A stretch of 19,766 nucleotides of DNA from Candidatus Hadarchaeota archaeon (GCA_040755315.1 JBFMBF010000021.1:1-19766), one strand, 5' to 3'. Shown: positions 1-19,564, counted from the stretch's first letter. Notes: generated by a model from the sequence alone, not told the origin. Made by a program: numbers and translations.

Positions 1-2
1 GG

Positions 3-3000
3 GCCCGCTTGGAGAGCTGGTCCGCTGCAGTGAACTCGCCGGCGAGCTGGAAGTTACTTGAGAGCTGGTCCGCTGCAGTGAACTCGCCGGCGAGCTGGAA
101 GTTACTTGAGAGCTGGTCCGCTGCAGTGAATGCTCCGCCTTACGTGGGGTGGGCCCGCTTGGAGAGCTGGAGTGGGGCTTTAACGACCTTTACGCAGTGG
201 TACAGGCTGGAGACCTGGGCTGGAAAAGTGGCGGTGACTGGCCCTGCCCCGACTCTCGTCACTCCAACAAATGGAGCAAAAATTAACGACAACACCCCGC
301 AGCTCAGCTGGGACAACACCTGGATTGCAGACAACTGGGAAATTTGGATAGACAACGATACGAACTTCAGCTCACCAATTATCGAGAACATTCCAACCAA
401 CTCGTACACCCCATCGCTATCCGACGAGAACTACTCTTGGAAGGTCCGCGGTATTAATGATGGTTTCTACTCTAACTTCTCTCAAACATGGACATTCCTC
501 CTTGACACCGTCAAGCCCGGCATCCCGGTCAAATACTCTGTCAAAACCGACAACGGAATTGACGACCCGCCGGAAAACACCATCACGAGCGACACCACGA
601 TAGAATTTGACTGGAGTGATGTCACGGACAGCTCAAACTCCCCAACGGGGGAAAATGCTGGCGCAAGATATTACGAGGTGATTATCGACAACGGCACCTA
701 CACCATCGCTGAAAACATCTCTTGGCCTACATCAATAGTCATCATCGAAGTTCCGCAAGGCGAGTGGACATGGATAGTCCGGGCTTGGGACTGGGCAGGG
801 AACGTGAGTGACAACCAAGCGCCGTGGGGTCTGATAATAGACACGACTGGGCCAGCGCCACCTCCTCTCTCTTACCCTGCAAACGGTGCCATCATCAACA
901 TTGAAAACCAGACTTTCTCCTGGAACGTTCCGCAGGAAAAATATGGAGTGGTCCTCTACGAAATCCAGCTGGACAATGACAACAACTTTGGGTCGCTGCC
1001 ATCCTTCGGCTACTACCAAATTTCTGCCCCAACAACATCCAGACTAATCCGCATTCGTGAGGGCGGTGTCCCGAAGGACGAGAATTATTACTGGAGGGTT
1101 CGCGCTCAGGACAACTCGACCAACTGGAGCGAATGGTCTACCCCATGGACACTACTGTTGGACACCCTGCCCCCATCTGTTCCGCCAAAGTTCTGGCCAG
1201 ACAACAACTATGTGTCCACAACGGCCCAACTTACATTGGAATGGACAACCGTGACCGATAACTCTCTTTCCCCAACCGGAGAAAACGCTGGAGTGGAAAA
1301 CTACCAGGTATGGGTGGACAACGACAACGACTTCAGCTCGCCCGAGAACCTTTCAATAGTCACTCACCCATCAAAAGAATACACGACGACGCTCCACGAC
1401 AACGTCTGGTACTGGCGCGTTAAGGCAATTGATAGGGCTGGGAACGCGAGCGATTACCAAGTCTACTGGAAGTTCACCATTGACAATAACCCGCCTTCAG
1501 CCCCGTCAGCCCTGCTCGCACCTGCAAACGACACAAAAACCAACGAAAACAAGCCGCTGTTCAGATGGAACTGGGTTTTTGACGTGACTGGTGTAACATA
1601 CGAAATCTGGATAGACAACGACAACGACTTTAGCTCACCTTTCCGGGACAACAGGCTGGATAACGTCTGGAACTCCGCGGACAACTACTCCAACGGCCTC
1701 ACCGACGAGAACTACTCTTGGAAGGTCAGAGTGTGGGACGGGACTGGAAAGGTTGGCGCTTTCTCCCAGACATACACCCTCCTCGTTGATACCATGCCAC
1801 CAACTTCTCCGACCTCTTCTCCACAGGATGGACTGATGACCGCTGACAACAAGCCCACGATTTCATGGAGCGCCTCTACCGACAATTCCTACTCTCCAAC
1901 CGGAGAAAACGCGGGAATCTGGCGCTACCAGATCTGGCTCGACAACGACAACGACTTCAGCTCCATAGATTACACTGGGTTCAGCTACGATGATTCTGAT
2001 TTCGACTCCTTTGACGGCGGCACCGGTTACCCAGGCGCTGGGTTCAAGGAAGAGAACTACTCTTACAAGGTGGCCGCCTGGGACTGGGCGGGCAACCGCG
2101 GAGACAACAGCCCGACATGGACATTGGTAGTAGACAAAACCAGGCCATACGCACCGCCGCTCTTGAGTCCAGAAAACAGAGCCACCATAAATCACAACTT
2201 TTCTGGAGTGACACACGACTGGGCAGATGTGGACGACGCATCGGGGATAGACCACTATCAAATTCAAGTGGACAACGACGAGGACTTCTCATCCCCACAG
2301 GACCCAATTCACGATGGATTATTTTCCCCACCACCAAACAACCTCACGCAGTCCTACGTCAGCGTGGAGTACTTTGATGGCTCAAATTCCTATGATGACA
2401 AGTACTACTGGCGCGTGAGGGCCTACGACAGAGCCGAACCAGCCATGCCGGGGGCTTGGTCAGATGTCTGGGAGCTGATTATCGACACCGTGAAGCCGTT
2501 CAAATCGACTCTGCTCCAGCCGGAAAACAACCGCATAACCACAGACAACACCCCGTACTTCACCTGGGAGAACGTCACAGACAACGCCGCGAAGACCTCG
2601 GACGTGAGCGGCTTCAGCTATTTCATCCTGCAGATAGACAACACGCCCGCCTTCACCTCGCCGCGGGTATTCACCAACATCCTGGAGAACTGGTTCACCC
2701 TCCCGACTGACAATTACCTGCAGGTTGGAAACTGGTACTGGAGGGTCAGGGCAGTGGACCGCGCCGGCAACCAGGCTGACTGGGCCGAGAACTTCAGGCT
2801 GAAAGTCAACGACCTCACGCTGTCTGTTGCGCTCTCGGACAACGACGTGAACCCCTCGCAAAGCATCACCATATCTGGCAGGGCCTACTGGCAGCCTGAC
2901 AACGCATCCGTCACAAACAGGACAGTGTTTATCTATGTCGACGACAACCTGATAGACAACGTCATGACAAACGAGAACGGAAACTACACTTACAACTACT

Positions 3001-6000
3001 CCACCGCAATCCTCGGCCTCCACACTGCCAAGGTGATAATCACTGACAACGACAACACCACCGAGGAGAATTCCATCGCCTTCAAGGTCGAGACCCTGAC
3101 GGTCTCCCTCAACCTCGGCGACTATGTGGCCAAACAGGGGCAGAGCTTTACGGCGTCCGGCACCGTCATGAGGCTGCCAGACGGAGTTCCGGAGCAGAAC
3201 GGCACCGTCCAAATTTACATAGACGACAACTGGCAGGTGACCGTAAACACTAACGAGAACGGTTATTACACCACCAACCTGAATGCCCCATCTGCGCTTG
3301 GTCCACACACTGTGAAAGTGCAGGTGTCCAACCCGAACGGCATCACCCAGGAAAACACGAAGAACTTCACCGTGAAAACGATCAGAATAAGCGTTAGCCT
3401 GTCAAAGGCCCAATCCAACCCGCTTGAGCAAATTACCATCTCCGGAATAGCAAAGCTGGACGACGGGAGCACCCTGACGCCAATCGACGGAGAGAATGTC
3501 ATAATCTGGAAAGAGTGGATGGGCGCGGTAGACAAGCAGACTCCAACAATGGCGGACGGCTCTTACTCCACGGTCATCACCGCCCCGGGTGACATCGGAA
3601 CATACATTTACAAGGTCAAAATCACAGACTACCCGGACGACATTTACGGGGAGAACTCGACTACCCTGCAAGTCAAGAGGGCGGACATAACCGCCACCTA
3701 CGCAGACAACATAGTTAACCCCAACCAAAGCAACACCGTTTCAGGCACGGCCACTCTCGTTGGAGAAAGCGAAAACACTCCGATAGAAAACACTGTTGTA
3801 ACCTTCATCTTGGAGAACAGCACCGGCCAAACTGTTGCAAGCGCGGCAGGAAGCACCAACGCCAGCGGCAACTACTCCATAGCGTTCGCGTCCCCGCTGA
3901 AGCTTGACACATACACGGGGACTGTGAGCATATCATACAGCGGCTTCTCCGGCGCCCGCCAAGCCACCCTCTATGTAAAAACCGTCTGGATATCTCTGGG
4001 CTTCACGGACAACATAGTGAAGCTCACCGAGGATTTCACGATATACGGAACGGCTACACTTATGCCGGACAGCACCCCCGTGCAGAGCCGCACAGTCAGC
4101 CTCAGGAAGGACAACAGCACCCTGCTTGACCCATCGCCGGTCACGGACGAGAACGGTTACTACTCGTACCTCTACACATTGGACGCTACAAAGCCGGAGA
4201 ATCACAGCATGGTGGCAAACATCACAGATGTCAATGGGATCACCGGCGAAAACGTCCAATTCTTCGATCAGAGGGAAATTGCGTTCACATGGTTCGGGGT
4301 CTACGACAGCCACTACCAGTTCGACAGCGTCGTGAACCCTGGCGAAAACTTCTTCCCGAGCGTCAGGATAATTGAAAACAACGGGGCCCAGCTTATCCCG
4401 GTCACCGCCACAAAGGCAGAGGACCCGTTCAGGATGCAGATAGGGGTAGGCAACACCTACACCCTCTCGCATGTGTCTAATGGCTACTGGAAGATTGTCA
4501 CCACCACCCCATACACGGCGGCGGGCACCACGGGCACCTACTCCTTCCCGGCCGCAGATGTCCAAGTGACTGGTACCAGCGTCAACGGAATACAGGGGAC
4601 ATCGGCTGACGACACAATAGTATACAATGTCAAGACGCTTAGGCTCACGGTCACCGCCAGCGACTACATCGTCAGCCCAAGCCAGACTGGCGTCTCGGTG
4701 TTGGGGACTTTGACAATCCTGCCGGACGAGAACGCGGACAACGGCCAGACCGTGAAAGTGGAATTTAATGGCGAAAACACGTTCCTGACGACAAACGCCT
4801 CCGGGAACTACTCAACCCCTGTGACCATCCCGATCACAATAGGCTCCTACGAGGTCAGGGCTAGCGTCACCGACTCCCTGGGACTTGAACAGGAAAACAC
4901 CACGACAATCCAAGTGAAGAACATCACACTGTCGCTGCTGGGTTCGACGCCAGTAGCCGAGGAGGGGGTGCCGTTCACCCTCTATGGCCAAGCCAAGCGC
5001 TGGCCCGAGGGTTCCAATGTGCAAAACACCGACGTGAAGGTCTACATTAACGACAACCTCGTGACCACCACCCAGACAGATTTCGGAGGCAACTGGTCTT
5101 ACATCCACACCTTCACGACTCGCGGGATTGTCAATGTAAAAGTTAGCCTGACCGACTCGGACAACATAAGCGTCGAAAACACGATGCAGCTCACCGTCGG
5201 CCGTCCAATCCACATTTATGGTGTTATGAAGAGCCTGGACGGGCTGCCGATAAACGCCACAATGAAGTTCTACGAGCCAGGCACTACTGAGAACCTGTTC
5301 GACATCAAGACGGACGCTTCTGGCAACTACGACAAGTGGGTGTTCGCAGGATACTTCGACTTTGAGGTGATACTTGAGAACTACGGCTTCACGATAAAGT
5401 TCGAGAACCTGAACCTTGACGACCCGAAGAACTACCCGGACGGCGAAAACGTCATCGAGAACATCGTGGAAATTGACGTTCCTCCGACTGCCTTCATGTC
5501 GGTGCCGAACACCAGGACGGTCTTCAAGTCTGTCGCGGTTGATCCACACCAGCTGTTCACAGACAACCATGAAAACCGTAAGGTGACCTTCAACTTCTCG
5601 TCCTACATCACCCAAGTCGGGGATATCTGGTACCTGCGCCTGTACAGAACAAAGCAATACACTTACGAAACAAGGCAGGTCAACGGCTGGGAAACCCTTT
5701 CCTCAAGCCTTGACATCACCCAATACACGTTAACGGCGTGGGACAACATGGCCGGGGCGATGCCAGTCGGATTTGTTATCGCGGAGTTCGACCCGCTCGC
5801 GGAAACCATAACTGCACTTGAAAACACCGTCGGGCAGCTGCAGTCGGCGTCGGAGTCCTTGAACCAGTCCGCGCAGGCGGCAGCGGCATCTGTGGAGAAC
5901 CTCCAAGCCGTCTCCGAGAACTTGAAACAAACGGTGTCAACTCTGGCCACTCAGGAAAACGTGCAGGCGCTCCAGAGCTTGGTGGACAACATGCGCCAGC

Positions 6001-8981
6001 AAGTGGACAACCTGGCCACCCAAGCCAGCATGGAGAACTTGGCAACAAATGAGAACGTGCAATCGCTCCAGCAGCAGCTCAGCTACATCAGCGACAACAT
6101 CTTGGAGCTGTACGTAAGGACAGAAAACACATCACTCCTGGACAACCTGTGGACAAGCTTTGGGAGCATGTCCCAGACTGTGGACAACCTTGCCAAGCAG
6201 GAGAATGTCGAGAACCTGCAGAAAATGCTTTTATATGCCTTCCAGCTGCTCGACAACGTCGCCCCAAGGGAGTTCTTCACAGTAGACCCGCAAAACATTT
6301 CCCTCTCGCTCCGTCAGGGAGAAAGCATCACAATAGACATGAACGTGAACAACGGGGCCTTCGTCGATCTCACCTTCACACCATCGGCAAGCGGGGATGC
6401 TGCAAACTTCCTGAGCTTCAACCCGACATCTCTGTTTGTTGCGTCCTTAACCAGCGGCAAAATAAAAGTTTCAGCGGTAATCCCGGGTTCAGCTGAAGTC
6501 AAAACATACTCCGGATGGGTGACAATAAGAGACACCACAACTGGGAGAGAAAAGGTCATCCCGACGACAATCCAGGTCCTCTCAAAGGAAAAAGGCATGT
6601 TTGACATGACGGTGGTGCCCCGGACCAGCACTTTGATGCCGGGCGGCAAGCTGATTGTCGACGTGCTGTTCAAGAACCTAGGAACGACAGATTCCGATGT
6701 AACTGGAGTCTACGTTTCCATGCTCGGGCCTGGCGGAGAGAATTTCACAGTGTATGAAAACTCCTCATTCATGGTGGCTGCAGGCGAAGTAATAACCAAA
6801 ACATACGAGTTCGAAATTCCGGAAAACGCAAGCCAGGGCAGCTATCTCGTGAGGGTGGACGGCGTTTACCCGCGCGATGGAGCAGAGATAAAGCTCTCCT
6901 CTGCAGACACCGTGGAGATACGGAGGCCGCCAGAAGAACTCAGGGTAGCCGGAATCCCGTTATGGCTGCTGATTGCAATGATAATCGGGTTAACCGTCGC
7001 CGGAATATCTGGCCACTTCGCGCGCAAACAAATGAAGAAGAGGAGCATGAAGAAGAAACGCTTCGAGGCGACCATCTTCGCGGACGAGCTGCCGAAACCC
7101 GGCCCGAACACCATAAAGTTCGGACGCCTGGCCGAGGGCAAGGCGGACGCCTTCCTGGGTCTCAACGACGTCAAGATGCACATGATGACCGCCGGCTCCA
7201 CGGGAGGCGGGAAGACCATATCATCAATGGTCATCGCTGAAGAGGCGCTGATACAGGGCAAAAACGTGATAGTCTTCGACCCGACAGCCCAGTGGACAGG
7301 CTTCCTGAGGAAATGTACCGAACCGAAGATGATGTCCCACTACGCGAAGTTCGGACTCACCGATGCCGACGCCAGGAGCTTCCCGGGCGTCGTGAAGCTC
7401 ATCAAGGACCCGAGGCAGAAGATTGACATGAAGGAACTGCTGAGCGAGGCCACCCGCGGAAAGATCACAGTCTTCGTGATCGAGAGGCTCAAGCCCAGCG
7501 ACATGGACATCTTCGTCACGAACACCGTCCAGTCCATCTTTGCCTCGCAACCCATGGAATACCCAGATCTCAAGACGCTGATAATCTACGACGAGGTCCA
7601 CAGGCTGCTGCCCAAGTTCGGCGGCTCCGGGGCGGGGCAAATACAGCTTGAGCGCTCAGTCAGGGAGTTCCGTAAGTGGGGTATTGGTGTCATGCTGGTC
7701 TCGCAGACCATCGCTGACTTCGGGGAGACAATCAAGACCAACACCCGTACGCAGATCCAGTTCTGGACCCGTGAAGAGGCCGAGCTAGAAAGAATCAAGA
7801 TGAAGTACGGTGAGGAGCACGTCAGGTCCGTCTCGAAGGCCCCGATAGGATTCGGCATGGTCGTCAACCCAGACTACAACCGCGGCAGGCCTTACTACGT
7901 GAACTTCAGGCCCATCCTGCACTCGCCGTTCAGGCTCACGCCGGACGAGCTCGAGAAGTACTACGCTGCCGACGACAGGATAGAGGACATCAAGTTCAAG
8001 CTCAAAAAGCTGGAGGAGAAGGGCGTGGACGTGTTCGACCTCCGCATAGAGCTCGGGCTGGCCCAGCGCAAGCTCGAGGAAGCTTCATTCGACATGGTCA
8101 ACGCATACCTGGACTCGCTGGAGCCGAGGGTCGACGACGTCTGCGCAAGGCACAAGCTCAAGGGTCTCAAGAGGGAGATAGAGCTGGTCCCAGAGGACGA
8201 AATCAAGAGGGCGCAGACGGCCGCGCTCAGGGAGAGGGAGAGGCAGCTCGCCGCGGTACAGAAGACACCCGAGATAGTCGAGGCCTACCGCGACCTGCTC
8301 GGCCCGAAGAAGGAGGTCACCCACGGAGAAGTTGTGAAGCCTCTCAAGGAAGGCGCCAAGGAAGAGGTAAAAACAGAGGCGCCCGCCGGGGAATCATTCC
8401 ACCCCGACTCGGAAGAGGGGAAAGCAGCTGCCAAGGCGGCGGAAGAAAAGGCCAAGGCAGAGGCGAAAAGTGCAAAGAAGAAGACAAAGACGGACGGCGG
8501 CACTCAAATTAGGAGCAGAGTGTTGAGTCAAGTAAAAGCAGGCCGTGCTTCAGGCAAACCTCTCCGAGCTGCCGACAAGAGAAAGACTGCCACAGACGGC
8601 GGCAAATACTTGACCCATGAAGTCGCGGGGCAGGCAAAAGCAAGCCCGGCGCCCAGCAAATCTTTGGCGGAAACTATCAAGAAGTCACTCTCTGAGATGG
8701 GATACACTTACCACGACTCCGAAATGGCGTCTGCTACTGAAAGAAAGAAGGGGAAGACAAAGACGGACGGCGGCAAATTCATGCCTGGCTTGGTTTCAAA
8801 GCAGGGAAAGACAAGCGCGGCCAATGGAAAATCTTTGGCTGAAATGATCAAGCGGTCCCTCTCTGAGATGGGATATACATACAACGACTCCGAAATGGCC
8901 TCTGCACCGGAAAGGAAAAAGGCAAATAAGCTCCAAAAAAGTGTAAAGGGGAGGAAACATGCCAAAAGCAGGGGGAGATGA
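3..8981 (+). CDS. Giant single-pass membrane/surface protein with C-terminal cytoplasmic HerA/FtsK/VirB4-like (DUF87/DUF853-type) P-loop ATPase; 5'-partial
   Basis: The frame is open from nt 3 and no signal peptide is visible, so the true start is probably upstream. Layout: WxxLESW repeats (1-230); about 8 FN3-like modules (YxIxxDNDxxFSSP...YxWxVRAxDxAGN, ~230-2810); Ig/carboxypeptidase-regulatory-like modules (TxxNGxY, ~2810-5780); heptad coiled coil (~5790-6260); two Ig-like domains; TM IPLWLLIAMIIGLTVAGISG followed by RKQMKKRSMKKKR (~6950-7060); Walker A GSTGGGKT (~7194-7217); Walker B LIIYDEVH (~7578-7601); REFRKWG and MLVSQ motifs (~7662-7706). Confidence 0.9.
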   Translation, partial: ARLESWSAAVNSPASWKLLESWSAAVNSPASWKLLESWSAAVNAPPYVGWARLESWSGALTTFTQWYRLETWAGKVAVTGPAPTLVTPTNGAKINDNTPQLSWDNTWIADNWEIWIDNDTNFSSPIIENIPTNSYTPSLSDENYSWKVRGINDGFYSNFSQTWTFLLDTVKPGIPVKYSVKTDNGIDDPPENTITSDTTIEFDWSDVTDSSNSPTGENAGARYYEVIIDNGTYTIAENISWPTSIVIIEVPQGEWTWIVRAWDWAGNVSDNQAPWGLIIDTTGPAPPPLSYPANGAIINIENQTFSWNVPQEKYGVVLYEIQLDNDNNFGSLPSFGYYQISAPTTSRLIRIREGGVPKDENYYWRVRAQDNSTNWSEWSTPWTLLLDTLPPSVPPKFWPDNNYVSTTAQLTLEWTTVTDNSLSPTGENAGVENYQVWVDNDNDFSSPENLSIVTHPSKEYTTTLHDNVWYWRVKAIDRAGNASDYQVYWKFTIDNNPPSAPSALLAPANDTKTNENKPLFRWNWVFDVTGVTYEIWIDNDNDFSSPFRDNRLDNVWNSADNYSNGLTDENYSWKVRVWDGTGKVGAFSQTYTLLVDTMPPTSPTSSPQDGLMTADNKPTISWSASTDNSYSPTGENAGIWRYQIWLDNDNDFSSIDYTGFSYDDSDFDSFDGGTGYPGAGFKEENYSYKVAAWDWAGNRGDNSPTWTLVVDKTRPYAPPLLSPENRATINHNFSGVTHDWADVDDASGIDHYQIQVDNDEDFSSPQDPIHDGLFSPPPNNLTQSYVSVEYFDGSNSYDDKYYWRVRAYDRAEPAMPGAWSDVWELIIDTVKPFKSTLLQPENNRITTDNTPYFTWENVTDNAAKTSDVSGFSYFILQIDNTPAFTSPRVFTNILENWFTLPTDNYLQVGNWYWRVRAVDRAGNQADWAENFRLKVNDLTLSVALSDNDVNPSQSITISGRAYWQPDNASVTNRTVFIYVDDNLIDNVMTNENGNYTYNYSTAILGLHTAKVIITDNDNTTEENSIAFKVETLTVSLNLGDYVAKQGQSFTASGTVMRLPDGVPEQNGTVQIYIDDNWQVTVNTNENGYYTTNLNAPSALGPHTVKVQVSNPNGITQENTKNFTVKTIRISVSLSKAQSNPLEQITISGIAKLDDGSTLTPIDGENVIIWKEWMGAVDKQTPTMADGSYSTVITAPGDIGTYIYKVKITDYPDDIYGENSTTLQVKRADITATYADNIVNPNQSNTVSGTATLVGESENTPIENTVVTFILENSTGQTVASAAGSTNASGNYSIAFASPLKLDTYTGTVSISYSGFSGARQATLYVKTVWISLGFTDNIVKLTEDFTIYGTATLMPDSTPVQSRTVSLRKDNSTLLDPSPVTDENGYYSYLYTLDATKPENHSMVANITDVNGITGENVQFFDQREIAFTWFGVYDSHYQFDSVVNPGENFFPSVRIIENNGAQLIPVTATKAEDPFRMQIGVGNTYTLSHVSNGYWKIVTTTPYTAAGTTGTYSFPAADVQVTGTSVNGIQGTSADDTIVYNVKTLRLTVTASDYIVSPSQTGVSVLGTLTILPDENADNGQTVKVEFNGENTFLTTNASGNYSTPVTIPITIGSYEVRASVTDSLGLEQENTTTIQVKNITLSLLGSTPVAEEGVPFTLYGQAKRWPEGSNVQNTDVKVYINDNLVTTTQTDFGGNWSYIHTFTTRGIVNVKVSLTDSDNISVENTMQLTVGRPIHIYGVMKSLDGLPINATMKFYEPGTTENLFDIKTDASGNYDKWVFAGYFDFEVILENYGFTIKFENLNLDDPKNYPDGENVIENIVEIDVPPTAFMSVPNTRTVFKSVAVDPHQLFTDNHENRKVTFNFSSYITQVGDIWYLRLYRTKQYTYETRQVNGWETLSSSLDITQYTLTAWDNMAGAMPVGFVIAEFDPLAETITALENTVGQLQSASESLNQSAQAAAASVENLQAVSENLKQTVSTLATQENVQALQSLVDNMRQQVDNLATQASMENLATNENVQSLQQQLSYISDNILELYVRTENTSLLDNLWTSFGSMSQTVDNLAKQENVENLQKMLLYAFQLLDNVAPREFFTVDPQNISLSLRQGESITIDMNVNNGAFVDLTFTPSASGDAANFLSFNPTSLFVASLTSGKIKVSAVIPGSAEVKTYSGWVTIRDTTTGREKVIPTTIQVLSKEKGMFDMTVVPRTSTLMPGGKLIVDVLFKNLGTTDSDVTGVYVSMLGPGGENFTVYENSSFMVAAGEVITKTYEFEIPENASQGSYLVRVDGVYPRDGAEIKLSSADTVEIRRPPEELRVAGIPLWLLIAMIIGLTVAGISGHFARKQMKKRSMKKKRFEATIFADELPKPGPNTIKFGRLAEGKADAFLGLNDVKMHMMTAGSTGGGKTISSMVIAEEALIQGKNVIVFDPTAQWTGFLRKCTEPKMMSHYAKFGLTDADARSFPGVVKLIKDPRQKIDMKELLSEATRGKITVFVIERLKPSDMDIFVTNTVQSIFASQPMEYPDLKTLIIYDEVHRLLPKFGGSGAGQIQLERSVREFRKWGIGVMLVSQTIADFGETIKTNTRTQIQFWTREEAELERIKMKYGEEHVRSVSKAPIGFGMVVNPDYNRGRPYYVNFRPILHSPFRLTPDELEKYYAADDRIEDIKFKLKKLEEKGVDVFDLRIELGLAQRKLEEASFDMVNAYLDSLEPRVDDVCARHKLKGLKREIELVPEDEIKRAQTAALRERERQLAAVQKTPEIVEAYRDLLGPKKEVTHGEVVKPLKEGAKEEVKTEAPAGESFHPDSEEGKAAAKAAEEKAKAEAKSAKKKTKTDGGTQIRSRVLSQVKAGRASGKPLRAADKRKTATDGGKYLTHEVAGQAKASPAPSKSLAETIKKSLSEMGYTYHDSEMASATERKKGKTKTDGGKFMPGLVSKQGKTSAANGKSLAEMIKRSLSEMGYTYNDSEMASAPERKKANKLQKSVKGRKHAKSRGR
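12..130 (+). repeat. Perfect in-frame 48-bp tandem repeat (about 2.5 copies) encoding ESWSAAVNSPASWKLL
   Basis: Unit GAGAGCTGGTCCGCTGCAGTGAACTCGCCGGCGAGCTGGAAGTTACTT starts at 12, 60 and 108 (third copy partial). Nt 1-20 also recur exactly at 151-170. Confidence 0.95.
8592..8921 (+). repeat. 171-bp (57-aa) imperfect tandem duplication in the giant protein's C-terminal tail
   Basis: TDGGK at 8592 and 8763. KSLAETIKKSLSEMGYTYHDSEMASATERKK (8658) vs KSLAEMIKRSLSEMGYTYNDSEMASAPERKK (8829). A third TDGG lies at 8490. Confidence 0.9.
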
Positions 8982-9834
8982 AGAATCCGTAAAGGCCGCC
9001 TTGAAGCCGGTCACCACAAAGCTTGAGCAGATGGAGGCCCAGGTGGCCGCCCTGTCAAGCCTCAGGGAGACCTACGACACCAGGTTCACCATGCTCAGCG
9101 AGAAAATCGGAGAGGTCAGGTCCATGATCCTCACGCAGGCCAAGGAGGGCGCCGATGCAAAGGCCAAGGCGGAGAAGGCGCTGATGGCCCTCGAGGGGGT
9201 GAAGCCTGAGGAGTTCAGGTCCGCCATTATCAAGAGGGACGCAGACGTCGAGGCCCTCAAGGTGAAGCTTTCCTCCACTGACGACATGATCAAGAACCTC
9301 ATGGCCGAGATGAGGGACTTCAGGAACGCCCTCGCACAGTTCAAGGGGCTAGAGGCCGTTATCGGGATGTCCGACGAGGCGAGGAAGAACATCATCAGAA
9401 TCCAGCAGCTCAAGGACCAGGTTGAAGTGATGTCTGACAAAGTCATGGCGGCTTTCATGGAGTTCCAGCGCAGGTTCAAGGACGTGACTGACCTTGGGCT
9501 GAAGGTCTCTACCCTTGAGGAGACTGTAAAACCATTGGGAAAGTCAGTAAACCAGATTGATGTGCTGGTGAAGCAGGCGGTCACGAAAGCCGAGATGGCA
9601 AAGCTCACGGGGGACATCGAGAGCCTGAAGAGAGTGGCCGAGGAGATAAAAACATACCACCAGCAGCTCACAGAAAGCGGCGAAGCCACACAGAAGCTGA
9701 AGGTGGAACTTGGTAAAACCTTGAAGCAGGCGGAGATAAGGAACAAGAAAGAGCTGGCCAAGATAAACGCGCAAATCAAGGTTCTGGAGAAGATAACCTC
9801 CAAGCTGCTCAAGTTGATTCTTTCACCCGGGTGA
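8959..9834 (+). CDS. Uncharacterized all-alpha coiled-coil protein (291 aa)
   Basis: Continuous heptad-like K/E/L/A-rich sequence with no TM segment. GGAGG RBS just upstream; overlaps the end of the giant ORF by 23 nt. Confidence 0.85.
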   Translation: MPKAGGDEESVKAALKPVTTKLEQMEAQVAALSSLRETYDTRFTMLSEKIGEVRSMILTQAKEGADAKAKAEKALMALEGVKPEEFRSAIIKRDADVEALKVKLSSTDDMIKNLMAEMRDFRNALAQFKGLEAVIGMSDEARKNIIRIQQLKDQVEVMSDKVMAAFMEFQRRFKDVTDLGLKVSTLEETVKPLGKSVNQIDVLVKQAVTKAEMAKLTGDIESLKRVAEEIKTYHQQLTESGEATQKLKVELGKTLKQAEIRNKKELAKINAQIKVLEKITSKLLKLILSPG

Positions 9835-9836
9835 AG

Positions 9837-9866
9837 TTTAAATACTACTACTAACTACTACTAACT
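9837..9866 (+). promoter_or_regulatory. TATA box plus 10-bp direct repeats (candidate operator) upstream of the zinc-ribbon/MinD genes
   Basis: TTTAAATA at 9837-9844; ACTACTACTA x2 (9844-9853, 9854-9863) plus ACT. The ATG at 9874 is about 30 nt downstream, consistent with a leaderless or short-leader archaeal transcript. Confidence 0.6.
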
Positions 9867-9873
9867 GGTCAGG

Positions 9874-9999
9874 ATGAAGCTTCATTGCAAGAAGTGTGGG
9901 TACAACTGGGAGTACCGAGGCAAGTCAAAATTTTACGCTACATGCCCGAGATGTCTTCGCAAAGTCAAGGTGGCGGAGCCCCCGCAAAGGAGAAAGTGA
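9874..9999 (+). CDS. 41-aa C4 zinc-ribbon microprotein (not in ORF track)
   Basis: Manual translation MKLHCKKCGYNWEYRGKSKFYATCPRCLRKVKVAEPPQRRK*. Two CxxC pairs with a CGYxWxYxG...YxTCPxC pattern typical of small archaeal Zn fingers; fits between the TATA box and the MinD ATG. Confidence 0.85.
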   Translation: MKLHCKKCGYNWEYRGKSKFYATCPRCLRKVKVAEPPQRRK

Positions 10000-10003
10000 G
10001 AGC

Positions 10004-10810
10004 ATGGTGAAGAAGAGAAGCGGACTTATCATAGGGGTCTTTTCAGCAAAGGGGGGGGTGGGCAAGACCACCACCGTCGCCAACATAGGAGCGGCCCTGG
10101 CCCAGAAGCTCAAGGACAAGGTCCTCCTCGCAGAGACCAACATGACGGCTTCAAATCTGGGCCTTCACCTTGGAATACTTGACCCGCCAATAGTCGTGCA
10201 AGATGTGGTGTACGGTCGGGTCAAGGTATCGGACGCCATCATAAAGACTGAATACGGGATACATGTCCTGCCGGGCTCTGTGGCCTTCACCGAGGAAGTC
10301 GGGTCGATAGACCTGAGTGCGATAATCTCTGAACTCAAGAAGAAGTACCAAGTGATAATCTTGGACACCGCCCCTGGCTTTGCCCCCGAGGTCTACGCCG
10401 GAATGAAGGTCTGCGACGAGATACTCGTGTGCTGCCAGCCGCAGGTCCCTGCCATAGCTGGGACGCTGCAGACTTTCAGGGCTGCCGACAAGCTGAAGAT
10501 ACCCACGTTCGGGGTCGTGCTTACGAGGATCACAAAGAAAAGGTACGAGATCTCGCTGTCTGACATCAGAAGGACTCTGGGGTGGCCCACCCTGGTCGAG
10601 GTGCCTGAAGACGACATGGTGCCCGAAAGCATAACCAGAGGGATGCCGGTGGTGCTCTACGCGCCCAACGCTCCAGCCGCAGTAGAATACAGGAAGCTGG
10701 CCCAGATGATCCTTTCACACATCAAGGGGCGCAAGCGAGTGAAGCCGACCCGCAGGAAAACCGTGAAGAGGCGAGCGAAGCCTGTAAAAGCAAAGAGGAG
10801 AAGGAGGTAA
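10004..10810 (+). CDS. minD: MinD/ParA-family (SIMIBI) ATPase
   Basis: Deviant Walker A KGGVGKTT, IILDTAPG switch II and a C-terminal PEDxxV...GxPVVxYxPxxPAA motif of archaeal MinD. Start moved to ATG 10004 (MVKKRSG) after a GGAG motif. Confidence 0.88.
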   Translation: MVKKRSGLIIGVFSAKGGVGKTTTVANIGAALAQKLKDKVLLAETNMTASNLGLHLGILDPPIVVQDVVYGRVKVSDAIIKTEYGIHVLPGSVAFTEEVGSIDLSAIISELKKKYQVIILDTAPGFAPEVYAGMKVCDEILVCCQPQVPAIAGTLQTFRAADKLKIPTFGVVLTRITKKRYEISLSDIRRTLGWPTLVEVPEDDMVPESITRGMPVVLYAPNAPAAVEYRKLAQMILSHIKGRKRVKPTRRKTVKRRAKPVKAKRRRR

Positions 10811-10813
10811 AAC

Positions 10814-11362
10814 ATGGCGCTTGTGCACCTGCCGCCGATGGCCAGGTTCTTCATGCCGATGCCAGAGGATCGCATCAAGAAGAAGGCAAAGTATAATCTT
10901 GGGGAAAAGTACCTGGTGGTGGAGAGCTCGCCGAAGTTATCCGTTGAAATATTCAAGGAAATTACAACCCACGGCGTGCCGGGCATCTGGTTGACAAGCC
11001 ACGACCCGAAAAGCGTGGAGCTTGGGTTTGGCCTTAGCAAGACTGCGATCCTTTCCCTCACCGATAAAAAACTGCCTGGAGAGGCCACCCTGCCGCCCGA
11101 CAGGCTGGACAGGGCTGTGGACATAGTGGCTAACTACCTCAGCAGGACCGGGCTGGCCGTGGCGCTGATAGACAACTTCTCAGACCTAGCGCGGGTGAAT
11201 GGAATCTCCAAGGTCCTTGACTTCATAAAAAAGATGGAAGACACCTGCGCAAAGAACGACTACGCTCTGATAGTGGTGCTTGACCCCGCTGCATTTGCGG
11301 AAGCCCAGGTCAATGTTCTCATTGAAGGATTCAGGGACTGGCGGATTTTCAAACAGGTGTAA
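10814..11362 (+). CDS. DUF835-like (degenerate RecA/KaiC-fold) protein
   Basis: YLVVESSPKLSVEIF..GIWLTSHDP..AILSLT..VALIDNFSDLARVNG..FIKKMED..LIVVLDPAAF matches the DUF835 pattern from memory; no Walker A. GGAGGT RBS upstream. Confidence 0.7.
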   Translation: MALVHLPPMARFFMPMPEDRIKKKAKYNLGEKYLVVESSPKLSVEIFKEITTHGVPGIWLTSHDPKSVELGFGLSKTAILSLTDKKLPGEATLPPDRLDRAVDIVANYLSRTGLAVALIDNFSDLARVNGISKVLDFIKKMEDTCAKNDYALIVVLDPAAFAEAQVNVLIEGFRDWRIFKQV

Positions 11363-12404: not shown

Positions 12405-12429
12405 CGTCACATAAGGGGTTAATGGGCCC

Positions 12430-12551
12430 GGGCCCGTGAATGGGTTAAAACCCCATCGGGAAGCTCAGTCTGGTTAGAGCGGCCGGCTCTTAACAGCCCA
12501 GCTGGGAGCCAAACCGGCAGATCGAGGGTTCGAATCCCTCCGGGCCCGCCA
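12430..12551 (+). tRNA. tRNA-Lys(CTT) with two introns (9/10: 12439-12462; 37/38: 12493-12512)
   Basis: Spliced product GGGCCCG-TG-GCTC-AGTCTGGTTA-GAGC-G-GCCGG-CTCTTAA-CCGGC-AGATC-GAGGG-TTCGAAT-CCCTC-CGGGCCC-G-CCA is a complete cloverleaf with encoded CCA. Confidence 0.9.
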
Positions 12552-17830: not shown

Positions 17831-18241
17831 TCACTTGAGAATTTTTAGCATCTTGTCTACTGTTATTATTTTGATGCCTTTGAAGCTCTTCAGAGAAGTG
17901 AGATGTTTATCCCCCGAAACAATGTAATCTGCGTGGGCACTGTACGCAGTATTCACAATAACATCGTCTTTTGGGTCCTCTTTTACTACCCTAAACTTGC
18001 TCATGACTTCCACCAGAATCATTCTTTTGCCAAGATACCTGAGGAACTCGCTCACATCAGTGCCGCTAACATATCGCCTAATCCTGTCTCTAGCCAAAAC
18101 TGAAATCATCTCATCCAACAAAGGCTTGGAACTGACCAGCTTGGCATCGACCCCGTCTATTCTTAAAACAAGCTGTCGCGGTTTGCCTCCGCTTATCAAA
18201 GCTGAAATGAGAACATTGGTGTCCGCAACTATCTTGATCAT
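17831..18241 (-). CDS. vapC: PIN-domain toxin (VapC-like)
   Basis: IVADTNVLISAL, E in LLDEM, EDPKDDVIVNTA, IVSGDKHL: acidic PIN tetrad. Confidence 0.9.
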   Translation of the reverse strand: MIKIVADTNVLISALISGGKPRQLVLRIDGVDAKLVSSKPLLDEMISVLARDRIRRYVSGTDVSEFLRYLGKRMILVEVMSKFRVVKEDPKDDVIVNTAYSAHADYIVSGDKHLTSLKSFKGIKIITVDKMLKILK

Positions 18242-18511
18242 TTATCTGCCTTTGTTTCTGTAGTCGTGGACTAGTTTGAATATCTCTTTTTCTGTAATCC
18301 CACCGTATCGCTTCACACGTTCATCAACGCGTTTAAAAACCGCCTCAAGCTTTCGCCTTTCTTGTTCAAGGTCGATTTTTCTCATTATCACCGCATCCCC
18401 ACGCCCAGCGACCAACATCTTCGTTTTCGGTTTCAAGCCAAGCTTTGTCCTCAACTTCCTGGGTATAACTATCTGTCCCCTCTCGCCAACTACGCTAATT
18501 TCTTCTTTCAA
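18242..18511 (-). CDS. AbrB/MazE/SpoVT-family antitoxin
   Basis: VVGERGQIVIPRKLRTKLGLKPKTKMLV; abuts the PIN gene. Start probably TTG 18511 (GGTGG RBS); the track's ATG 18535 lies within the promoter region. Confidence 0.88.
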   Translation of the reverse strand: MKEEISVVGERGQIVIPRKLRTKLGLKPKTKMLVAGRGDAVIMRKIDLEQERRKLEAVFKRVDERVKRYGGITEKEIFKLVHDYRNKGR

Positions 18512-18523
18512 TATGCCCACCAA

Positions 18524-18553
18524 TATGAAATTCATACTTTTAAGTATTTATAA
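18524..18553 (-). promoter_or_regulatory. TA promoter with overlapping inverted repeats (candidate antitoxin operator)
   Basis: Minus-strand TTATAAAT (18546-18553); palindromes TATGAA-A-TTCATA (18524-18536) and ATACTT-TT-AAGTAT (18534-18547). Confidence 0.6.
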
Positions 18554-18611: not shown

Positions 18612-18716
18612 TGGTGGGCCCGGAGGGATTCGAACCCTCGATCCCCACCATGTCAAGGTGGTGTTTGTTAGGGAAAAAGCGGTCTTTTTCCCTCATAACC
18701 GCTAGACCACGGGCCC
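18612..18716 (-). tRNA. tRNA-Val(GAC) with 29-nt intron at 23/24 (18665-18693)
   Basis: Spliced: GGGCCCG-TG-GTCT-AGCGGTTA-TG|AC-A-CCACC-TTGACAT-GGTGG-GGATC-GAGGG-TTCGAAT-CCCTC-CGGGCCC-A-CCA. BHB: GUUA/UAAC helix, UGA and AAA bulges, 9-bp intron stem. Confidence 0.93.
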
Positions 18717-18838
18717 ACAACTTACATGGGATATCGTGCCTATTTTGTTTTGTGGTGAAGGGTGAAAACGAGACTGAACCCTATTCAATCTCTAAAGAAT
18801 AACTTTTTAGCAGCTACACCAAACTGAAGATGATTCCG

Positions 18839-19027
18839 ATGACGCTTGGCCAGCTACTGATTTATCTGGGCGGAGTCATTGCGATTGTGATGGTATGGCG
18901 CGGGCTGTGGGGGCTCATGGACATCTACCTTTTCCCCAACAATCGCAAGCGTAGCTACTGGGCTTCATTTCTCATTGGGTTTATCTTGATCAGCATATTC
19001 TTGTTCCTGTTGCCGCGCTTCCCGTAA
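18839..19027 (+). CDS. Small two-TM membrane protein
   Basis: Two hydrophobic segments around VWRGLWGLMDIYLFP; start ATG at 18839 (or 18830); directly upstream of the Nudix gene. Confidence 0.7.
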   Translation: MTLGQLLIYLGGVIAIVMVWRGLWGLMDIYLFPNNRKRSYWASFLIGFILISIFLFLLPRFP

Positions 19028-19465: not shown

Positions 19466-19564
19466 TGGTGGACCGGGCGGGATTTGAACCCGCGACCTCC
19501 CGCATGCCAAGCGGGCATTCAATCTGGTGAGTTTTCTCTCATTGCCAGGCTGAACTACCGGCCC
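19466..19564 (-). tRNA. tRNA-Ala(GGC) with 21-nt D-loop intron at ~20a/21 (19522-19542)
   Basis: Spliced: GGGCCGG-TA-GTTC-AGCCTGGCA|T-GAAT-G-CCCGC-TTGGCAT-GCGGG-AGGTC-GCGGG-TTCAAAT-CCCGC-CCGGTCC-A-CCA. G3:U70 Ala identity pair. BHB: CUGG/CCAG helix, CAA and AUU bulges. Confidence 0.93.

Follow-up and report, generated by a model that had tools for sequence, protein, structure and literature searches.

Here, we present the analysis of a stretch of 19,766 nucleotides (nt) from a Candidatus Hadarchaeota archaeon (GCA_040755315.1, JBFMBF010000021.1:1-19766), in the following called the window. Its first gene (window 3-8981, + strand) almost certainly encodes a SPEARE-type giant surface protein, which crosses the membrane once and carries an ATPase at its cytoplasmic C-terminus. 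According to a structure model, this ATPase is a member of the FtsK-HerA superfamily. It is co-inherited with the gene that follows (window 8959-9834, + strand), which encodes a soluble coiled-coil protein of 291 amino acids (aa). The family itself is known and functionally unsolved; its occurrence in Hadarchaeota and the coiled-coil partner were not found in the accessible literature. Tentatively, we favour a reading in which a ring motor beneath a contact adhesin acts on this partner.

The giant protein and its cytoplasmic ATPase

Contig C21 of the host genome (1.21 Mb, 86.6% complete) begins with the window. A single open frame of at least 2,992 codons covers positions 3 to 8981 of the + strand and is open at the contig start, where the 5′ end of the gene is cut off. 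The feature described by an earlier sequence-only reading (6940-8250) is the C-terminal portion of this truncated frame. The assembly breaks within 16-residue (48-nt) tandem repeats (3-230), and the same repeats are carried by a 4,114-codon frame in which the minus strand of contig C2 ends, 111 nt of it being identical to window 60-170. The C2 frame has a hydrophobic segment near its N-terminus and no C-terminal anchor. It aligns with residues 1274-4089 of a 7,944-codon homologue in genome G025 (45%), the window frame aligns with residues 5117-7898 of the same homologue (47.5%), and a homologue of 7,554 codons in genome G034 has the two parts in the same order. Because both frames align in order to these homologues, the C2 frame is probably the missing N-terminal half of a protein of about 7,000 aa in total. 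Against this join stand the facts that no exact overlap of the two contigs was found and that other contigs also begin in related repeats. The hydrophobic N-terminal segment of the C2 frame is signal-like, and its link to the window protein depends on the putative join. A 391-codon frame upstream of the C2 half, with no Pfam match and no homologue, was rejected as a likely shadow frame. Eight other frames of more than 1,600 codons are present in the host genome (on C1, C2, C4, C9, C17, C26 and C31); they are mostly secreted or anchored, several consist of the same FN3-like and 16-residue repeats, and none carries the ATPase.

Behind the terminal repeats, the ectodomain comprises about 8-9 FN3/Ig-like modules of approximately 100-115 aa each (234-2825; Ig_Rha78A_N match) and an Ig-like or invasin-like beta-sandwich stalk (2826-5795; Big_13 and Invasin_D3 matches), both with approximate boundaries. 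An amphipathic helical segment follows (5796-6281), which is lineage-restricted (matched in 4 of 221 homologues) and contains no match to a strict beta-layer pattern. Two beta-sandwich domains lie next to the membrane (6282-6932); 65 of 221 homologues match the first of them, and the second is NPCBM_assoc-like. A single transmembrane (TM) helix (6954-7019) is directly followed by a basic, positive-inside stretch (7023-7064); all these features are on the + strand. The segment 6945-7019 is the sole strongly hydrophobic one of the window frame (Kyte-Doolittle 2.36; runner-up 1.2). In addition, 48 N-glycosylation sequons precede the TM helix and one follows it, a split that fits an N-out/C-in topology. 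The single-pass topology of the sequence-only reading is thus borne out. In Pfam, Ig-like matches fall into the ectodomain and DUF87 into the cytoplasmic part; laminin-G, protease and propeller matches occur neither in the window frame nor in the C2 frame.

Across homologues, ectodomain length ranges from about 180 to more than 5,000 aa with the motor unchanged, which argues against one specific allosteric link between the two. That the motor might pull on the ectodomain or be switched on by it, as in the sequence-only reading, is a conjecture. The TM helix lies at most 70 aa upstream of the ATPase domain in 209 of 215 homologues, and the spacing between TM helix and Walker A is fixed at 50-71 aa. 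The TM helices of 210 homologues are rich in Leu, Ile and Val and variable, with strongly polar residues at about 3% of positions and a strict GxxxG in 17.

The cytoplasmic part begins with a compact core of HerA/VirB4 fold (7092-7937, +), which lacks a HAS barrel and in which the insert between Walker A and Walker B is short. It contains, on the + strand, GSTGGGKT (nt 7194-7217), VFDPTAQW (nt 7272-7295), YDEVHRLL (nt 7587-7610), REFRKWG (nt 7662-7682) and MLVSQ (nt 7692-7706). All motifs named by the sequence-only reading are therefore present, in order and in one open frame, and the ordered set appeared in none of 20,000 domain shuffles. The Walker A Lys (nt 7212), an Asp (nt 7278), the Walker B Asp-Glu (nt 7590-7595), the arginine finger (nt 7671) and the sensor Gln (nt 7704) are all in place. 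In the model and in homologues, a conserved three-helix extension and a long helix follow (7938-8267, +). The protein ends in a charged, Lys/Ala/Glu-rich tail of 237 residues (8268-8978, +) that is absent from the sequence-only reading, is matched in 2 of 221 homologues and holds an internal duplication of 122 nt (8630-8751 and 8801-8922). Within window 8475-8922, a TDGG motif occurs three times and a 40-residue unit twice; the giant protein on contig C9 ends in the same TDGG motif, which is perhaps a short docking signal.

The 417-residue cytoplasmic domain was modelled with AlphaFold2 from a 67-row alignment (predicted local distance difference test 94.8, predicted template-modelling score (pTM) 0.92), giving a RecA-like core at about residues 25-306, the three-helix extension and the long helix. 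Foldseek ranked HerA of S. solfataricus first (E 1.5e-11). A wide structural search returned HerA (PDB 4d2i; Z 25.3, root-mean-square deviation 2.8, 249 aligned residues), DndH (23.9) and VirB4 (4ag5; 23.4), with lower scores for TrwB (19.0), FtsK (17.2) and EccC (16.9), and at most 13 for FlaH and RecA-like proteins. The top 23 rows are HerA, DndH, VirB4, TdpAB, TrwB, FtsK, TcpA, Ecc/Ess and packaging ATPases. On this modelled fold, the domain is a member of the FtsK-HerA superfamily, as had been claimed, with HerA and VirB4 not clearly separable. Walker A and Walker B are 127 aa apart here, compared with 192 aa in the host's own HerA and a family median of 123. The host genome holds a single SPEARE-family ATPase; its repair HerA is a separate gene adjoining nurA on contig C8.

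Mutants of HerA in K154, D176, E356 and R381 lose most ATPase activity (PMC4351679), and these residues align with K65, D87, E192 and R218 of the window domain. The corresponding positions are conserved in 220/220, 220/220, 213/221 and 221/221 homologue domains, the 221 fetched homologues having been picked by similarity with near-copies included, and one of them being a fragment without the first two positions. The catalytic residues are hence intact, in agreement with the sequence-only reading. Since the trans-acting arginine finger is invariant in all 221 domains, assembly of the ATPase domains into a ring is likely; whether of six subunits, as suggested earlier, or of another number, this ring is a prediction.

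The coiled-coil partner and the distribution of the family

A word search among 7,997 scored candidates yielded 319 proteins of 1,645-5,236 aa (E ≤0.001), the 120 best of which measure 1,646-5,229 aa, and a full HMMER scan 352 representatives at E ≤1e-30. Of at least 615 genome stretches, 551 were confirmed, and the neighbourhood counts below come from the best 79 loci. The homologues are labelled as Hadarchaeales (the best matches, 70-78%), Aenigm-, Woese-, Pace-, Micr- and Nanohalarchaeota. SPEARE proteins of the same topology, most conserved in their intracellular part, were described in Hamm 2019 (PMC6642349), where RLG14629.1 is named as a match; this protein (P0027 in our set) is 47% identical to the window domain over 433 aa (E 3e-133). 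In Reva 2023 (PMC10266531, section 11), the domain was reinterpreted as an ATPase of VirB4/TraG type that ends in a coiled-coil tip, and the whole as a possible secretion straw. We file the window protein under the family so re-defined, because Reva 2023 also rejects the protease and endonuclease of the first definition for the type proteins. The literature thus already contains this architecture and, as a proposal, a channel much like that of the sequence-only reading (PMC6642349; PMC10266531, section 11); the novelty implied by that reading is not supported. No report of Hadarchaeal SPEARE-type proteins, and none of the coiled-coil partner, was found in the accessible literature, outside of which lie most subscription journals and the Hamm 2019 supplement, whose Table S3 and Fig S17 on taxa with similar sequences may bear on the novelty of the Hadarchaeal occurrence. 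The accessible parts of PMC9563170, PMC11803251, PMC4858521, 10.1101/2025.05.02.651781 and 10.64898/2026.05.13.725050 offer no further mechanism.

The partner gene (8959-9834) is preceded by GGAGG and overlaps the end of the giant gene by 23 nt. Its product is all-helical with three breaks and has no TM helix. At the third break (residues 207-212) it contains the motif aliphatic-A-T-K-polar-D/E, in which A, K and D/E are found in 27, 44 and 52 of 53 family rows, respectively. The motif corresponds to the beta-layer consensus, which has been linked to trimeric coiled coils (PMC4786415), and the partner is, judged from its sequence, probably a parallel trimer. It belongs to no known family and has no relative of solved structure: the best Foldseek match had E 2.3, with weak, non-significant ESCRT-III/Vipp1 rows (model pTM 0.31), a profile search of the PDB returned only generic coiled coils, and Pfam and NCBIfam matches were below cut-off except for one generic hairpin stretch. 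In the Atlas, the top clusters consist of archaeal proteins with no name. Pilus-linked coiled-coil proteins of a Hamm preprint (10.1101/2023.02.24.529834) sit in pilus loci.

Homologues of the partner are present at 51 of 79 loci and at 42 of the 57 loci with at least 3 kb of downstream sequence. Eight of the 15 remaining loci were tested, and in seven of these eight genomes (one of them, G075, unpublished) the partner is encoded elsewhere. Within Hadarchaeota, ATPase and partner are found in the identical 12 of 66 genomes, and no genome has one alone. In the DPANN phylum to which the carrier of RLG14629.1 belongs (n = 42), 27 genomes have both, one the ATPase only, four the partner only and ten neither.

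The ATPase occurs in 7 of the 26 Hadarchaeota genomes of best quality. A tree of 115 domains places every one of the 16 Hadarchaeota-labelled rows, together with five unlabelled ones, in one clade (Shimodaira-Hasegawa-like approximate likelihood ratio test 100). In a subset tree of 56 rows, this clade is supported at 100/100, and the node that joins it to Aenigmarchaeota rows at 92/97. When HerA was used as the root, its branch was long and unreliable. The trees suggest that Hadarchaeota probably acquired the module once from a DPANN donor, with subsequent duplication and loss, the root being weak. Mis-binning of the contig was rejected: it carries FtsZ, Spt5 and Dph5, of which FtsZ is 94% identical to that of the same-genus genome G002 and Dph5 61-66% identical to those of members of the order and family. 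The lack of the giant gene in G001 and G002 says little, because Dph5 is also unmatched there. Seven loci labelled ‘uncultured Methanosarcinales’ (L039, L040, L041, L045, L051, L058 and L062) were considered as a second non-DPANN host and rejected; their ATPases nest among Woesearchaeota rows and their gene order is Woesearchaeota-like, so the records are probably mislabelled.

Several loci carry additional family ATPases. Stand-alone paralogues with no evident TM helix are found at L012 (G023:C11, 307 codons) and L015 (G011:C9, 270 codons); both have lost the Walker A lysine and kept the arginine-finger motif, and possibly represent inactive ring subunits or regulators. At L107, a 296-aa open reading frame between two full ATPase genes has kept Walker A, with an altered Walker B and no arginine finger. 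In G077:C28, G082:C25, G086:C157 and G106:C8, as well as at L091 and L107, two family ATPases lie in tandem on the same contig, and the frames reach 12,145 codons. Such a tandem paralogue may also explain the ‘second VirB4-like ATPase’ reported beside the nanohaloarchaeal giants.

Neighbouring genes and other features of the window

Downstream of the partner follows a gene for a MinD/FleN-family ATPase (10004-10810, +; longest frame from 9896), probably an accessory gene. A MinD-family gene is present in 9 of 12 Hadarchaeal stretches, and this link is weaker than that of the coiled-coil gene because the genomes hold between two and seven MinD-family paralogues. The next, co-oriented DUF835 (KaiC/FlaH-like) gene (10814-11362, +) has at most a putative link to the giant gene and no homologue among the fetched loci. 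One neighbour family resembles the helical extension of the ATPase, with a profile match in just 5 of 66 members. Several neighbour families at the Woese- and Pacearchaeota loci (L036-L109) are conserved and unannotated: a bitopic PKD protein of about 1,000 aa is encoded at 50 loci, small helical proteins at 45, a regulator-like protein of 90 aa at 26, and secreted proteins of 260 and 560 aa at 22 and 20 loci, respectively. The 90-aa protein looks like a ribbon-helix-helix regulator by sequence, with no Pfam match. Neither it nor the small helical families have a match in the host genome, and the bitopic family matches there solely via generic repeat modules.

Three tRNA-like genes are located at approximately 12429-12551 (+), 18612-18716 (-) and 19466-19564 (-); plain ARAGORN missed them and Rfam finds one. 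Inspection by eye suggests Lys(CTT) with two inserts, and Val(GAC) and Ala(GGC) with inserts in the D-arm, the inserts being probable non-canonical introns. A lower-GC stretch between the tRNA-like genes contains an AbrB/MazE-PIN toxin-antitoxin-like pair (17831-18535, -), and a two-helix protein of 65 aa with a Pfam Fuseless match is encoded at 18830-19027 (+).

Possible modes of action and comparison with known systems

We tentatively prefer a reading in which the giant protein would be exported N-terminus first, guided by the signal-like segment of the putative N-terminal half, and anchored by the one helix near its C-terminus. The FN3/Ig arm of about 6,400 residues, an estimated 200-250 nm if extended, may bind another cell or surface, as its domain types suggest. 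The cytoplasmic domains would form a ring with shared active sites that hydrolyses ATP. This ring would grip or thread the co-inherited coiled-coil protein, or a cargo on it, and could thereby gather several adhesin arms, hold them in position and draw them tight to form a junction. The TM helices would merely anchor the ring, and any exchange of material would use a conduit encoded outside the locus. Support comes from the catalytic conservation, the fixed spacing of TM helix and ATPase, the co-inheritance of ATPase and partner, and the separate NurA-HerA pair of the host. Several points weigh on the other side. Binding, oligomeric state and ATPase activity are predictions, and the motif counts stem from the similarity-chosen set described above. 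A look-up listed no sequencing run for window 1-9900, which says nothing for or against expression. Proteins with the most similar folds translocate nucleic acids or proteins; the basic core (49 Lys plus Arg, 34 Asp plus Glu) and a Lys/Arg that follows Walker B in 219 of 221 domains fit a DNA substrate equally well. The residue preceding a conserved His is Thr, Met or Val here, compared with Arg in HerA (R142), which we take to be a second trans-acting residue. Finally, related genomes do not provide independent cases of the co-occurrence of ATPase and partner, which is in part due to adjacency and was scored in incomplete genomes.

Two alternatives let the ring move material across the membrane. 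In TrwB and TcpA, a TM segment precedes the ATPase, as it does here, and the structural similarity to VirB4, TrwB and EccC would suit a secretion ‘straw’, in which the ring pumps effector proteins or DNA into a cell in contact, through a tube that TM helices and ectodomains form together. This proposal (PMC10266531, section 11) is in our view rather unlikely. Its TM helices would have to line a conduit, but they are unconserved and non-polar, and six such helices in a bundle are, from helix-bundle geometry, unlikely to pass DNA. A widespread multi-pass protein is absent from the 30 commonest neighbour families, the sole six-TM family being found at nine loci. The channel of six TM helices envisaged by the sequence-only reading is thus not supported, given the variable hydrophobic anchors and the lack of a conserved multi-pass partner nearby. 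Furthermore, the host genome, at 86.6% completeness, has just one family ATPase and no match to P-loop_TraG (its two T2SSE-type ATPase matches lie on another contig), and the ectodomains differ in length and content. Somewhat less probable still is DNA uptake or exchange similar to CedB/CedD, with the adhesin capturing a cell and the ring importing DNA for nucleotides or recombination; DNA uptake as such was suggested in PMC6642349. HerA as top structural match, the basic core with its conserved Lys/Arg, and the nearest Atlas clusters, which are compact DUF87 ATPases and in part viral, would agree with it. The best NCBIfam match is indeed CedD (E 3e-10), but with just 39 bits against a cut-off of 600, and most of the helical insert of HerA is missing. 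The Ced system requires VirB6-like CedA/CedE and the pilin CedA1 (PMC11868833), whereas no CedA/CedE-type multi-pass gene is conserved at the loci (the host genome was not searched for CedA itself), and a conserved nuclease partner is likewise absent there.

A receptor-like switch, the second option of the sequence-only reading, in which a ligand would cluster the ectodomains, the ring assemble and a signal pass via the coiled-coil protein and MinD, appears improbable. Single-pass topology, fixed spacing, active sites that need oligomerisation, the MinD-family neighbours and the existence of degenerate soluble paralogues are compatible with it, but protein and partner lack a kinase, cyclase or DNA-binding output domain, and a flexible arm of thousands of residues would be a poor allosteric link. 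Largely refuted, and very improbable, is the original SPEARE reading of a plain adhesin whose domain is vestigial or of restriction type, or else a motor that only aids the export of its own giant arm. A ResIII match exists, yet at 21 bits it is under the cut-off of 22.5, and the nearly invariant catalytic residues and an FtsK-HerA fold with no nuclease domain contradict a vestigial enzyme. Self-export has been proposed for giant Omnitrophota proteins with SecA-like domains (10.1101/2023.11.21.568195); here, however, the motor is kept in members with an ectodomain of a few hundred residues, and the eight other large frames of the host do without it.

The ring motor acting on the coiled-coil partner remains our preferred reading, and the wider picture that it would open is doubtful. 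ATPase and trimeric partner might together be the conserved centre of a machine for cell contact in archaea that differs from both type IV secretion and Ced. In it, a membrane-anchored ring motor would work on a fibre in the cytoplasm, and the giant adhesins above would be interchangeable. Some Hadarchaeota might have received this machine from a DPANN donor and might attach to other cells, or feed on them, with its help. If so, part of the Hadarchaeota would have an unrecognised contact-dependent lifestyle. By their predicted function, SPEARE-type proteins are prime candidates for the means by which DPANN archaea keep hold of their hosts and exploit them. Their presence has been taken as a sign of symbiosis (PMC8470020), and the proteins of an imaged DPANN attachment organelle are unknown (PMC11420986). 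The Hadarchaeal copy means either that this marker is not symbiont-specific or that some Hadarchaeota have contact-dependent habits. In addition, the near-obligate partner reduces a problem of 7,000 residues to one of two proteins (417 and 291 aa).

Among known systems, the same four catalytic residues are found in HerA of archaea (S. solfataricus, PDB 4d2i), which is the best structural match, and in antiphage HerA proteins. HerA in the strict sense has an N-terminal HAS barrel, a long helical insert and a nurA/mre11/rad50 context, whereas the window domain has no HAS barrel, a short insert, a membrane anchor with ectodomain and no NurA, Sir2 or nuclease partner. VirB4, the coupling proteins TrwB/TcpA/DotL and EccC/EssC of type VII secretion share the superfamily fold (Z 23.4, 19.0, 17.1, 16.7, 16.9) and belong to systems of membrane-tethered rings. 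They differ in that their family models score far below cut-off here, channel or pilin genes are not conserved, and a giant ectodomain is fused. No VirB6/CedA-type channel and no VirB2/CedA1-type pilin is conserved at the loci, the host genome having been searched for P-loop_TraG and T2SSE only. CedB and CedD are likewise archaeal VirB4/HerA-like ATPases at cell contacts (PMC11868833); unlike the window family, Ced is described without a fused adhesin, and CedA/CedA1-like neighbours were not seen at the window-family loci.

The closest relatives are the SPEARE proteins (PMC6642349, PMC10266531). As first defined in Hamm 2019, these have a serine protease, laminin-G and a restriction endonuclease, for which the protein described here has no Pfam match above cut-off, and the coiled-coil partner goes unmentioned in the accessible parts of PMC6642349 and of section 11 of PMC10266531. 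Known hosts are Nanohaloarchaeota and other DPANN, whereas the host here belongs to the Hadarchaeota. At the nanohaloarchaeal giant locus (Reva 2023), a second VirB4/TraG ATPase lies directly downstream; here, the coiled-coil gene stands in its place. Shared by both are the long Ig-type ectodomain, the TM helix near the C-terminus, the cytoplasmic ATPase, the helical tip and even the weak ResIII match of the original annotation.

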